Source: an uncultured Ruminococcus sp.
Lineage (GTDB): Bacteria; Bacillota; Clostridia; Oscillospirales; Acutalibacteraceae
DNA: 64,000 nucleotides
NCBI GenBank assembly: GCA_902784855.1
Contig: CACZWQ010000002.1
Span: forward strand, 2,547-66,546
Reading direction: 5' to 3'
The position numbers and the translations under genes were made by a program. How positions within the stretch are numbered: position 1 is the stretch's first letter; each line of letters starts with the position of its first letter. Shown in pieces: positions 30,360-64,000 of this stretch. The notes beneath the pieces were generated by a model. It saw nothing but the letters and a program-made list of their open reading frames with translations. It was not told the DNA's origin and made no database searches.

Positions 30360-30553
30360 GAAACGTGACGTTCCATCCAATCCGCGAGTGAAAAGATTAT
30401 AGAAATAATAACCTTTATAGCCCACGTTATAACGCCCGCGTGTCGCGGGAGCCAATCCGCGAGTGAAAAGATTATAGAAATAATAACCTTTATAGCCCGC
30501 GCTATAACGCAGGCATGACGGTTACCGTCCAAACAAACTTTGCACGCGTGGGT
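30360..30553. repeat. Modular palindromic repeat cluster, locus B
   Basis: CAATCCGCG at 30378 and 30453, each preceded by a hairpin and followed after 34 nt by CCC(A/G)CG-N6-CGC; 59-bp near-exact direct repeat with a 75-bp period. Confidence 0.9.
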
Positions 30554-47011: not shown

Positions 47012-47230
47012 CCCGCGTGTCGCGGGAGCCAATCCGCGCGGGCAGCAGACGTTTGCAAAAAAGGTCAGAATAACAGCCCGCGCTATAACGCGGGAACGTG
47101 ACGTTCCATCCAATCCGCGCCTGAGAGGGTTGTTTGGGCGGTGACCTTTAAAATCCCGCGCTATAACGCGGGCATTAATGGCAACTGTCCAAGCAAACGT
47201 CGCACGCGTGGAGAAAGCGCCCTTGGGCGC
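47012..47230. repeat. Modular palindromic repeat cluster, locus C
   Basis: CAATCCGCG at 47030 and 47111; CCCGCGCTATAACGCGGG at 47077 and 47155; hairpins CCCGCG-tgt-CGCGGG and GGAACG-tga-CGTTCC. Confidence 0.9.
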
Positions 47231-48513: not shown

Positions 48514-48600
48514 GCCACACAATGGGCAAACCTGTCGAAAGGCAGGGGCGCAAAGCCAAGGTGTCTGCAGCGTCATCGGACGTATGATTGACCGGCCGCA
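48514..48600 (+). ncRNA. c-di-GMP-I (GEMM) riboswitch
   Basis: GGGCAAACC-TGTC-GAAA-GGCA-GGGGCGCAAAGCC...GACCGGCCGC follows the GEMM-I consensus, including the GNRA tetraloop and G at the position equivalent to G20 (c-di-GMP rather than cGAMP type). Confidence 0.9.
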
Positions 48601-48627
48601 ACGTTTTTTCGTCGCGGCCGTTTTTTT
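48593..48627 (+). terminator. Riboswitch expression-platform terminator
   Basis: CGGCCGC...GCGGCCG stem plus T7; its 5' arm is the 3' end of the aptamer. Confidence 0.8.
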
Positions 48628-58507: not shown

Positions 58508-59383
58508 ATGAAAGGAATATTCAAAAAAGCCGCAGCGGTGCTGCTGGCGGTTGTGCTGGTGTGCAGCCTCGCGGCGGTCATTCCCGCGTCGGCGGCGGAA
58601 AAGCCCTTTGTGCTGCATGTGAAATCCAACCTGTTTCCCGATCGGGATTTCACCTATTCCAACCTGTCGTGCTTAGCGGACGACAACGGCGATGTGTTCC
58701 TCACGGTCGATTTTGACATGCTCGCGGCACAGCAGTATCTGATCAATCTGGACATCGGTTCCCTGACATGGGACACCGACGTGCTCGAATTCAAGCAGGC
58801 GTACAACACATACGGCACGGGCAGAAACGCGCGCTTTGTGCTGTTCCCGTTTGCGTATGAGCAGGGGCTCGGCACCGGCATCGTCAACACCTTCGGCGAC
58901 AACAACGGCGGCAGGCTCGTCGGCAACTACACAAGCGTCAGTCCTGCGGCGTATGCCTATGAGGAGGACGGCTCGGCGGTCACGGTCGTGCGCGCCACCT
59001 TCAAGGTGATCGACAGCGCGGCAGCTTCGGCTGAGATCGAGCTGACCATGCGCGAGATGTCCCTCTGCGATGACGACGTCGAGGAGCCGTATTCCCAGAG
59101 AAAGCCCGTCGAGCATGGTGAGATGCAGCCGGATGTCTGCGCGCAGCTGACTCTTTCCACCGGCATTACCCCCATCAATGCGGGCGATGTGGACGGCGAC
59201 GGCAAGGTCACCATCAACGACGCGACTGCTTTGCAGGGCTTCCTTGCGGAGATGAACAGCAATATCGACTGGACAGACCCCAAGGTATTGGCACAGGCGG
59301 ATGCGAACCACGACGGCAGAGTCGACGTCAGGGACGTCACCGAGATCCAGCGCTATCTCGCAAACATCACCACAAATCTCTAA
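58508..59383 (+). CDS. Secreted cohesin-like + dockerin protein, paralog of 1129-2001
   Basis: Signal peptide; shared motifs KSN.F, LIN.D...LT.D..VLE, GRN...FPFA.E, SV.PAAYAY, A.FKV; dockerin GDVDGDGKVTINDAT...DANHDGRVDVRDVT. Confidence 0.75.
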   Translation: MKGIFKKAAAVLLAVVLVCSLAAVIPASAAEKPFVLHVKSNLFPDRDFTYSNLSCLADDNGDVFLTVDFDMLAAQQYLINLDIGSLTWDTDVLEFKQAYNTYGTGRNARFVLFPFAYEQGLGTGIVNTFGDNNGGRLVGNYTSVSPAAYAYEEDGSAVTVVRATFKVIDSAAASAEIELTMREMSLCDDDVEEPYSQRKPVEHGEMQPDVCAQLTLSTGITPINAGDVDGDGKVTINDATALQGFLAEMNSNIDWTDPKVLAQADANHDGRVDVRDVTEIQRYLANITTNL

Positions 59384-59564
59384 CCGGTGCCCCGGTGGGT
59401 AATCCGCGCCCGTTGCCACGGGAGGGCAATCCGCGCGTGCAACGTTTGTAAAATAGGTTAGAACAATAGCCCGCGTTCGAACGCGGCAGCGTGACGCTGC
59501 ACCCAGTCCGCGCAACAGATGTTTGTAATAAAGGTAAAATAATAGCCCGCGCTATAACGCGGGC
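59383..59564. repeat. Modular palindromic repeat cluster, locus D
   Basis: TAATCCGCG (59400), CAATCCGCG (59427) and CAGTCCGCG (59504), each after a different hairpin; CCCGCG-N6-CGCGG hairpins at 59470 and 59546. Confidence 0.9.
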
Positions 59565-59591
59565 ATTATTTTTACCGAATAATCAAACTTT

Positions 59592-60140
59592 TCACTCGCG
59601 GATTGGGTCGAGCGTCACGCTCGCGCGGGTGGAGATGGTGATGAGGCTCATGCCCTCCGGCTGCGCGGGCAGGCGTTCCATGATACGCAGCAGCAGCAGC
59701 TCCGCCCAGCTGCGGGCATTTTCCGCCTTGAGCAGATCGATGCGGATCTCCTCCTCCCGAAGCAGCGCGGCGGCGTTGCCGGTGCACAGCAGGAACGCGT
59801 CGCCCTGTATGATATCCGACTCGCGGCGCTGCGACAGGGGCAGCGCTTCGCCGTTCCGGAAACGAAGGAGCTTCATATCTCCGATGCAGCGCCAAGCGGC
59901 TTTTTTGCCCGCCAGCGCCAGTGCGGCGATCGATTTTTCCCCGATCATTTGGGAAAACAGCGTGTCAAAGCGGTCGGCGAGTGTGCCGCCCGCATTATCC
60001 CAGCGGGCGGTCAGGGTCTCGGCAATACAATCGCAGTCCTCGTCGCGGACGACGAGCAGCAGGTCGCTGTCATCCTCCGCGCGGGTGCCGACGGCGCTTT
60101 TGCCGTCGCGGTGTGTAAAGGAAAATACGTCGGGTATCAT
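59592..60140 (-). CDS. Degenerate PP2C/PPM-fold protein (probable pseudophosphatase)
   Basis: CIGDMKL.RFRNGE and GDAFLLCTG echo PPM motifs, but the DG and DN metal ligands are absent. Confidence 0.55.
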   Translation of the reverse strand: MIPDVFSFTHRDGKSAVGTRAEDDSDLLLVVRDEDCDCIAETLTARWDNAGGTLADRFDTLFSQMIGEKSIAALALAGKKAAWRCIGDMKLLRFRNGEALPLSQRRESDIIQGDAFLLCTGNAAALLREEEIRIDLLKAENARSWAELLLLRIMERLPAQPEGMSLITISTRASVTLDPIRE

Positions 60141-63213: not shown

Positions 63214-63301
63214 AAGCACAATCTCCTTTTCTCTTTTGACCTTATTTTAGCATTTTCTTCCACAAAAAGCAACCATTCAGCGCAAAATTCTAGAGAAACT
63301 A

Positions 63302-63618
63302 CTGCTGTAGCAGCAATCCGCGCGTGAGAGGTTGGTAAGGACGACAAAATTCAAGCCCGCGTTCGGGTGCGGGATATAACAATGGCGCAGCCAATTCATG
63401 CCGCAGGTAATTCATGGCGCAGCCATTTCATGCCCGAAGGGCAATTCATTCGGCGTTTGTAATAAAGGCAAAAATTATAGCCCACGTTATAACGCGGGCT
63501 ATAAAGGTTATTGCTATATTTAACTTTTCACGCGCGGATCGGCTCCCGCGACACGCGGGCGCGGGCTATAGTGGTGATTGCTTTATTAAACGCTTCACTC
63601 GCGGACTGCTGCTACAGC
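63302..63618. repeat. Modular palindromic repeat cluster, locus E, bounded by 24-bp terminal inverted repeats
   Basis: 63304-63327 and 63595-63618 are inverted at 22/24; core motifs at 63314, 63533 and 63600; hairpins at 63356, 63481 and 63545; internal AATTCAT repeats. Confidence 0.9.
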
Positions 63619-64000
63619 CGTAGAGTAGGCGTGGAAAAAGACTCTGGCTTTGTCCGGGGTGCCTACGCCGTAGTATTGGCATTCGTTCTCGGCGGTCTCG
63701 CCCGGCTCGATGACGCCGTTTTCATCGGCGCAGGTTTCCTCGCTGACGTGGGTCAGCTTGCCGTCGCTGTAGAACAGCGCAAGGTACTTGTTGTTCATCG
63801 AAACGCGCTCTCCCTTGTTCTCGGCGCTGACCTTGACCGAGGTGGGGGTCAGGCTGAAATCGACCGCGATATCCTTGTCGATGGGCTGGAAGTCCTCGAC
63901 CGGGACGAACTCCTCGATCTTGTACTCAAACGAGGAATACTGCCCGTTGCTGGTGAAATCGAGATAGACGGTGGTGCCGTCCTCGACGGCGATGGCGTTG
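63595..64000 (-). CDS. Hypothetical exported-type protein, 5' part outside window
   Basis: Frame open from 63999 (NAIAVEDGTTVYLDF...YLALFYSDGKL...IEPGET) to TGA 63595; codon usage like neighbouring genes. Confidence 0.7.
   Translation of the reverse strand, partial: NAIAVEDGTTVYLDFTSNGQYSSFEYKIEEFVPVEDFQPIDKDIAVDFSLTPTSVKVSAENKGERVSMNNKYLALFYSDGKLTHVSEETCADENGVIEPGETAENECQYYGVGTPDKARVFFHAYSTAVAAVRE

Follow-up and report, generated by a model that had tools for sequence, protein, structure and literature searches.

This analysis concerns a family of short intergenic repeats in an uncultured Ruminococcus sp. (GTDB lineage Bacteria; Bacillota; Clostridia; Oscillospirales; Acutalibacteraceae; NCBI GenBank assembly GCA_902784855.1), and above all the hairpin-bearing modules, here called "heads," with which these repeats begin. 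By "the window" we mean the whole stretch of DNA that was analysed, 64,000 nucleotides of contig CACZWQ010000002.1 (positions 2,547 to 66,546, forward strand); coordinates are those of the window unless another contig is named. The locus that drew attention to the family, at 59383-59623, starts within the stop codon of a cohesin-dockerin gene and reaches into the end of a minus-strand gene (59592-60140). Each head consists of a hairpin, a linker, and a conserved core, and is followed, directly or after further heads, by a body that ends in a terminal hairpin. A head or heads with their body are referred to as a unit, and two convergent units sharing a terminal hairpin as a doublet. The parts of the locus are as follows.

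59381-59383: stop codon TAA of the cohesin-dockerin gene; its last A is the first base of the head 1 hairpin.
59383-59408, plus strand: head 1, with hairpin ACCGG-TGCC-CCGGT (59383-59396), linker GGG, and core TAATCCGCG (59400-59408).
59409-59435, plus strand: head 2, which begins 27 nt after head 1, with hairpin CCCGT-TGCC-ACGGG (59409-59422), linker AGGG, and core CAATCCGCG (59427-59435).
59436-59486, plus strand: body 1, AT-rich over about 35 nt, ending in the terminal hairpin CCCGCG-TTCGAA-CGCGG (59470-59486).
59486-59512, plus strand: head 3, with hairpin GCAGCG-TGA-CGCTGC (59486-59500), linker ACC, and core CAGTCCGCG (59504-59512).
59513-59564, plus strand: body 2 and its terminal hairpin GCCCGCG-CTATAA-CGCGGGC (59545-59564), which is common to the minus-strand unit.
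59565-59623, minus strand: convergent partner unit, with hairpin CGAGCG-TGA-CGCTCG (59623-59609), linker ACC (59608-59606), core CAATCCGCG (59605-59597), and then its body.

The head is a 27-nt module made up of a 15-nt hairpin, a linker of 3-4 nt, and the core CARTCCGCG. A preliminary description of this DNA had listed eight hairpins, three at 59383-59512 and five elsewhere, and all eight are present; it overlooked the fourth head of the locus, on the minus strand (59597-59623), and it set the hairpins "directly 5'" of the core, from which they are in fact separated by the linker, whose length goes with the hairpin type. Four geometries can be told apart, and all of them keep the 27-nt period. 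By far the commonest is a 6-3-6 hairpin (stem, loop, stem) with a 3-nt linker, the class to which head 3 belongs. The second, 5-4-5 with 4 nt, is the TGCC-loop class of heads 1 and 2; the third is a CTAC-GGCT-GTAG class; and the fourth is a GCGCC-loop-GGCGC class, in which TTTY-TCCGCG takes the place of CAR-TCCGCG. When folded as DNA, the 6-bp heads come to about -7 kcal/mol and the 5-bp TGCC class to about -5 kcal/mol. The folding energy of the latter is ordinary for its composition, so the case for a conserved structure rests on covariation and not on folding energy.

The repeat is abundant. The pattern YARTCCGCG occurs 14 times in the window (4.3 +/- 2.0 in shuffles), and across the 2.05-Mb genome CAATCCGCG has 144 copies, compared with 13-63 for scrambled 9-mers. 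Units were collected genome-wide with a profile hidden Markov model (HMM) of the body, which spans core and body, beginning with the core, and leaves the hairpin out of the definition. Because this profile is blind to the hairpin, circularity is avoided when the hairpin is then looked for. At E<1e-3 it found 271 units in 114 loci, only four of which lie inside predicted genes. Contig ends are the site of 29 of the 114 loci; the repeats therefore break the assembly, and the copy numbers given here are underestimates.

For the 235 units whose core was covered, a perfect stem was sought within 24 nt upstream, with random genome positions as the control. Such a stem of at least 4 bp precedes 91% of the units (21% of random positions), one of at least 5 bp 78% (5.8%), and one of at least 6 bp 52% (1.6%). 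The units without a perfect stem mostly carry the same hairpins with one mismatch.

Whether the pairing itself is conserved was addressed in two ways. In the first, 200 heads were chosen only by the fixed-register apex CG-NGN-CG, and the four lower pairs, on which the choice did not depend, were scored. These pairs are 96.1% Watson-Crick, with all four formed in 180 of the 200 heads, and none of 5000 column shuffles matched this. Slid registers gave 24-37% pairing and background genomic CGTGHCG sites 30%. Pair 1 occurs as CG, GC, or TA; pair 2 as AT, GC, CG, or TA; pair 3 as AT or CG; and pair 4 as GC or AT. In the second, the comparison took in 43 distinct heads, some of them from the window and some from other genomes: 95.7% of cells are paired, and both sides have changed in four of the six pairs. 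The covariation score is 0.565 (0.168 +/- 0.024 after shuffling, with 0 of 500 shuffles as high), and slid controls that retain the relatedness of the sequences reach 24-53% pairing. A negative control was provided by 120 chance matches to TGA-N9-CARTCCGCGCGTG from metagenomes with no relation to the repeat, which showed 0-4 of six pairs, none of them reaching five. The structure is therefore conserved, as the preliminary description had proposed from a handful of copies: in the larger alignment, pairing is kept through double changes, transversions included, at four stem positions.

The companion claim, that the sequence is free, has to be narrowed. The two apical pairs (CG:CG) are invariant in the apex-selected set of 200 heads. 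The loop is TGA in 145 of them, TGT in 32, and TGC in 17, which bears out the remark that loops mostly start with TG (194 of 200), and none has an inverted loop (TCA, ACA, or GCA). Conservation also extends to the linker and the core. What varies is the lower stem, and it does so among about 15 discrete versions: 15 perfect 6-bp stems account for 198 copies, and seven major ones (CCCGCG, CGAGCG, GGAACG, CAAGCG, GCAGCG, GTCGGC, and GCAACG) for 188 of these, with up to 48 copies of a single version.

This pattern speaks to one possible explanation at once, namely that the palindromes are double-stranded sites of a dimeric DNA-binding protein, nucleoid-associated or regulatory. Short perfect intergenic palindromes with a conserved centre, CGTGNCG, are what one would look for in such a case. 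A dimeric reader would be expected to fix its half-site, however, and here four of the six half-site positions vary provided that they stay paired; the odd-length loop and the one-sided core also make the site asymmetric, and there are some 300 sites in 2 Mb, mostly at gene ends. A double-stranded operator is rejected because the half-sites vary, and we give it very little credence. Taken with the polarity of the loop and of the one-sided core, the maintained pairing is much more in keeping with recognition of a folded single strand than with a palindromic operator.

The comparison with other species sets the head apart from the rest of the element. Among 200 genomes sampled from the same genus, five carry the family according to the body-plus-core pattern, with 33 hits in the genome we label G196, 7 in G107, 3 in G213, and 1 each in G058 and G155. 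A scan for the head pattern in all species genomes added up to about 14 named rumen metagenome-assembled genomes (MAGs), plus scattered chance hits elsewhere; the carriers include uncultured Clostridiales RUG230, RUG277, RUG447, RUG333, RUG196, and RUG081, Ruminococcus sp. RUG12253, ruminal_MAG_154 and _245, and RGIG4846. Eight stem versions are common to other species, with the same linkers and 94-100% identity, and further compensated variants occur in other genomes (GCAGCT/AGCTGC, GTCGCG/CGCGAC, and GACGGC/GCCGTC). When the locus was compared by BLAST with the five carriers, each gave dozens of 27-32-nt head matches at 94-100% identity, compared with 65-77% for homologous coding DNA. No other part of the element is as well conserved as the heads, whose identity exceeds that of coding DNA, and the stem set either predates the species or is shared between them.

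The positions of the elements differ between species, and the present locus provides an example. The minus-strand gene at 59592-60140 ends in ...RIMERLPAQPEGMSLITISTRASVTLDPIRE, and its counterpart in G196 ends earlier, in ...RIMERLDKPPAGLGLLTVRVS. Here, at the end of the gene (59592-59623, minus strand), the head and core of the partner unit encode its last 12 codons (TRASVTLDPIRE), and the AGTGA after the core supplies the stop codon (59594-59592). The orthologous site in G196 has no repeat and carries a classical terminator, a GC-rich hairpin followed by a T-run. The repeat is thus present at this site and absent in G196, and here it has come to provide the gene's end and, probably, its terminator. 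A metagenome search for the orthologous locus, with the downstream protein as query, returned no relatives.

A second explanation must be weighed against the stem data, namely that perfect pairing is a mutational by-product, arising by template switching within the palindrome or by gene conversion between neighbouring heads and then amplified. Template switching is a known route to compensation, which creates and keeps perfect hairpins and produces one-step "compensatory" changes with no need for selection (PMC8794818). Several features of the heads would suit it: the stems are strictly Watson-Crick, without wobble; chimeric heads exist, whose 5' and 3' arms belong to different versions; and 12 of the 66 adjacent tandem head pairs are identical neighbours, against about 3% expected, an excess such as local duplication would produce. 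A tandem array of five 27-nt heads outside the window (G000:C4:11391-11499, minus strand) holds A-T, A.C, and G-C forms adjacent to one another, with GCAACG/CGTTGC, GCAACG/CGCTGC (the A.C form), and GCAGCG/CGCTGC side by side; this looks like a compensatory change caught in place. Against these points, spacer inversion, a hallmark of template switching, is absent (0 TCA against 145 TGA), and the geometry of 6-3-6 + 3 + 9 is fixed, together with apex, linker, and core. Stem versions persist at 94-100% identity across species with about 70% coding identity, and only 28 of 226 heads of the 6-3-6 class (12%) have a stem mismatch, even though whole elements are old and diverged. On balance, we consider a purely mutational origin of the pairing unlikely.

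These considerations do temper what had been claimed for selection. The preliminary description attributed the compensatory changes to selection on a single-stranded fold recognised by a protein or nuclease. The maintained pairing and the fixed polarity do fit a folded strand; the appeal to selection is less secure, since template switching or gene conversion would require none. Its further statement that the pattern is "not passive copying" is too strong. A single version can reach 48 copies, and identical heads make up 12 of the 66 tandem neighbour pairs, so that copying has multiplied a few independent compensatory events, perhaps 8-12.

One further regularity links the stem with the linker. 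In the 6-3-6 class, an A-T at pair 4 goes with linker ATC in 50 of 50 heads, and a G-C at pair 4 goes with linker ACC in 71 of 79, the remaining ones having ATC. The link is seen in two separate stem backgrounds, GCA_CG and CAA_CG (examples lie at 47090-47119, 59483-59512, and 59597-59626). It may reflect shared descent, a pyrimidine base triple (T with A-T, C with G-C), or a guide contact like those of the HUH enzymes discussed below.

Turning to the element as a whole, 192 of the 271 units (71%) form convergent pairs that share a terminal hairpin at a fixed offset, and in 64 of 76 full pairs the distance from core to core is 102-103 nt. Where a locus borders on a gene, the head of the outermost unit points outward in 83 of 97 cases at gene 3' ends and in 58 of 67 at gene 5' ends. 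With heads outward at both ends of genes, they are the termini of the element regardless of the direction of transcription. Around this plan the elements are mosaic, with 1-5 tandem heads per end, free combination of heads and bodies, and 1-7 units per locus. One arm of a doublet usually has a GGTNACC-type body and the other a AGGTTAGG-type body. The terminal hairpin, unlike the heads, shows no covariation, its stem being CCCGCG/CGCGGG almost everywhere. Its loop is often palindromic (TTATAA, TTCGAA), and the hairpin marks the centre of symmetry in each doublet.

In a doublet, the stem version at one end is drawn independently of that at the other. An apparent avoidance of the same stem at both ends (0 of 76 pairs identical, 2.6 expected) is not significant (P = 0.07). 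Just outside the hairpin, two bases show a weak CG preference.

A third explanation is a role in RNA, in which the heads would be hairpins of 3' untranslated regions that, with the single-stranded core, form the site of an RNA-binding protein or ribonuclease, or that protect against 3' exonucleases while the terminal hairpin acts as a terminator. The placement of the loci lends this some weight, as they are threefold enriched between convergent genes, where 13% of gaps hold one (tandem gaps, 4.4%; divergent gaps, 5.7%). The terminal hairpin common to the convergent units of this locus (59545-59564) is terminator-like in both directions and stands in place of the classical terminator of G196; the entire local doublet, folded as RNA, forms one long hairpin, far better than shuffles (z = -7.5). 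It can also be seen in the sequence that the CCGCG of the core could rival the 5' arm of the terminal hairpin for its CGCGG 3' arm. Set against this are the details of the pairing. Among 258 pair cells in the 43 heads there is a single G-U, and none as an intermediate where pair 4 alternates between G-C and A-T; genome-wide, the mismatches in 6-3-6 heads are A.C in 13 cases, G.T in 6, and others in 17, several of them chimeras of two versions. Outward heads are equally frequent at 5' and 3' gene ends, and 13 loci lie between divergent genes. A T-run (TTTT) follows the terminal hairpin at only 15 of 218 sites genome-wide and never follows a head hairpin, and no Rfam family matches the repeat sites at the gathering score, the only hits being sub-threshold ones to terminator-bearing families. 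The same T-run count led us to reject, genome-wide, the notion that the element is a generic intrinsic terminator. The rarity of G-U, the outward heads regardless of gene direction, and the rarity of T-runs lean toward a hairpin at the DNA level, with the reservation that the counts are small; a role of the heads in RNA is accordingly the less favoured reading, and we hold it to be possible rather than probable.

We therefore come to the interpretation that we prefer, namely that the heads are the recognition module, and the outward ends, of mosaic intergenic repeats resembling the repetitive extragenic palindromes (REPs), the bacterial interspersed mosaic elements (BIMEs), and the paired REPs known as REPINs, in this Ruminococcus-like bacterium and in at least a dozen related species. 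We would put its probability at about one half. In such repeats the head, once single-stranded, would fold into a hairpin (in DNA more probably than in RNA), and a trans-acting protein would read the shape of the hairpin together with the conserved apex and the adjoining single-stranded core. The limited stem set would go back to a small number of old compensated variants, since amplified by copying and by duplication in place. At certain sites, this locus among them, the central hairpin may also serve as a two-way transcription terminator.

Some background is useful here. Proteobacterial REP-type repeats are well studied, and in them a domesticated transposase, the REP-associated tyrosine transposase (RAYT), reads folded single-stranded DNA. 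More generally, HUH enzymes read REPs, the ends of IS200/IS605 elements, and origins of transfer (oriT) via a hairpin and the adjoining single strand. To our knowledge, little has been described of similar systems in Clostridia.

The resemblance to the REP/BIME/REPIN-RAYT systems of Enterobacteria, Pseudomonas, and Stenotrophomonas begins with the hundreds of short extragenic palindromes (PMC3116915, PMC8266576). It extends to a conserved single-stranded motif beside the hairpin, inverted doublets of fixed spacing, mosaic and tandem layouts, and the lack of target duplication. As in the REPs of Escherichia coli (y, z1, and z2), several stem types occur in one genome and differ by compensated changes; compensatory changes are likewise common in REPIN hairpins (PMC3116915). 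REPs are read strand-specifically as folded single-stranded DNA, and those of Stenotrophomonas maltophilia are perfect 8-bp palindromes with 3-nt loops (PMC8266576), which is close to the 6-bp stems and 3-nt loops described here. The present doublets differ in being asymmetric, with two body types and heads drawn independently, and in having a Clostridia host.

It is important to set out what weighs against this interpretation. Unlike REPs, the heads have no GTAG 5' of the hairpin, the conserved 9-mer CARTCCGCG lying instead 3' of it, past the 3-4-nt linker. No RAYT gene was found either: the Y1 transposase domain PF01797 is absent from the 94%-complete assembly (G000), where a copy in an assembly gap is possible. 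With GTAG and the transposase both missing, two defining features of RAYT systems fail here. Y1 hits were obtained in 104 of the 200 genus genomes, with or without the repeat, and the Y1-like genes present in four of the five carrier relatives are in no case flanked by heads. The single relaxase gene of the assembly has no head within 3 kb. A partner at least 85% identical over at least 120 nt exists for only 16 of 74 whole doublets; whole doublets are old, with no sign of recent transposition. Target-site duplications were sought at the ends of the elements and none was found, and no excision intermediate proving mobility was seen. Within doublets, the identity between the bodies of the two arms (0.50) does not exceed that between random units (0.53), which rules out a true palindrome with co-evolving arms. 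Lastly, the ten genes bracketed by repeat loci are housekeeping genes (for a sigma factor, an Rrf2 protein, a pyridoxal phosphate [PLP] enzyme, glycerate kinase, shikimate kinase, and others).

The search for a reader protein can be summarised briefly. A RAYT was rejected as the reader in this assembly on the absence of PF01797, and there is no association between the two in the genus, nor is a RAYT linked to the repeat in relatives; tblastn of the relatives' Y1-like proteins against the assembly gave nothing. The small Y1-like proteins of G155, G196, and G107 are 154-236 amino acids long and have the motifs NYDYSQ.GAY, MPNHIHLL, and WQRSYFDHVIR. A search for Y2 transposases was negative too, which proves little, as 14 control genomes were equally blank. 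TnpB-type zinc-ribbon proteins (PF07282) were dismissed, with weak hits only, inside large unrelated frames. The relaxase gene mentioned above (G000:C22:21781-23202, minus strand; PF03432, E 6e-14) is a 485-amino-acid open frame around the match and is probably part of a mobilisable element.

Other well-known systems offer partial parallels. In the subterminal hairpins of IS200/IS605 elements and in oriT/nic sites, as here, a hairpin stands with a short conserved single-stranded stretch, and there an HUH nuclease recognises both at once, in a strand-specific manner. In these systems, moreover, a flanking base varies in step with another element (guide and cleavage site), and the link between linker and pair 4 is reminiscent of this. 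Unlike these systems, the present repeats come with no Y1 or Y2 transposase that we could find (the Y2 controls being blank as well), and the relaxase gene has no head nearby. The attC sites of integrons are the classic case of structure-conserved, sequence-variable recognition of folded single-stranded DNA, and in this they are like the heads; they differ in being imperfect palindromes of 57-141 nt with extrahelical bases, R and L boxes, and gene cassettes, none of which is seen here.

A parallel in layout is provided by the BOX elements of Streptococcus pneumoniae (boxA-boxB(n)-boxC). In these intergenic repeats of a Firmicute, which are likewise modular, a tandem module of variable copy number stands between fixed ends, and the predicted fold is stable. 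BOX modules are longer, at about 45-60 nt, and the likeness to the heads is one of layout, sequence likeness not being expected. We know of no transposase of their own for BOX elements, and of no set of alternative compensated stems in them.

A bolder version of the preferred interpretation would be a REP-like system without a RAYT, in which a putative protein reads the folded 27-nt module, the link between linker and pair 4 is a real triple or guide contact, and the stem set is functional, for example because it avoids mispairing between neighbouring heads or matches several readers. We regard this as rather improbable; if true, it would mean that bacterial repeats can be recognised by a logic new to them, in a phylum from which hardly any systems of this sort have been described.

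Whichever protein may be involved, the repeat is of practical value. A compact module whose pairing is kept through double changes, and which is nearly unchanged across species about 70% identical in coding DNA with no recognisable enzyme, makes a clean case for studying what maintains repeats, and the head module is a practical bait for finding its reader protein. Those who annotate rumen MAGs should also be aware of these elements, which break assemblies, give genes their stop codons or C-terminal tails, and replace terminators at some sites.

Other loci of the family in the window are as follows.

2109-2259, both strands: doublet locus, with a left head CAACCGT-GGCC-ACGGTTG (core at 2128) and, on the minus strand, two tandem GGAACG-TGA-CGTTCC heads (cores at 2259 and 2232).
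30360-30519, plus strand: two direct units, GAAACG-TGA-CGTTCC (one A.C mismatch) and CCCGCG-TGT-CGCGGG, with cores at 30378 and 30453.
47012-47177, plus strand: two direct units, CCCGCG-TGT-CGCGGG and GGAACG-TGA-CGTTCC, with cores at 47030 and 47111.
63299-63629: two units with CTAC-class heads, CTACTGCTGTAGCAG and CTACGGCTGTAGCAG, with cores at 63314 (plus strand) and 63608 (minus strand).

In addition, a cyclic di-GMP-I riboswitch lies at 48515-48603 on the plus strand, upstream of a glycosyltransferase region (Rfam RF01051, 57.4 bits, E 1.3e-8).

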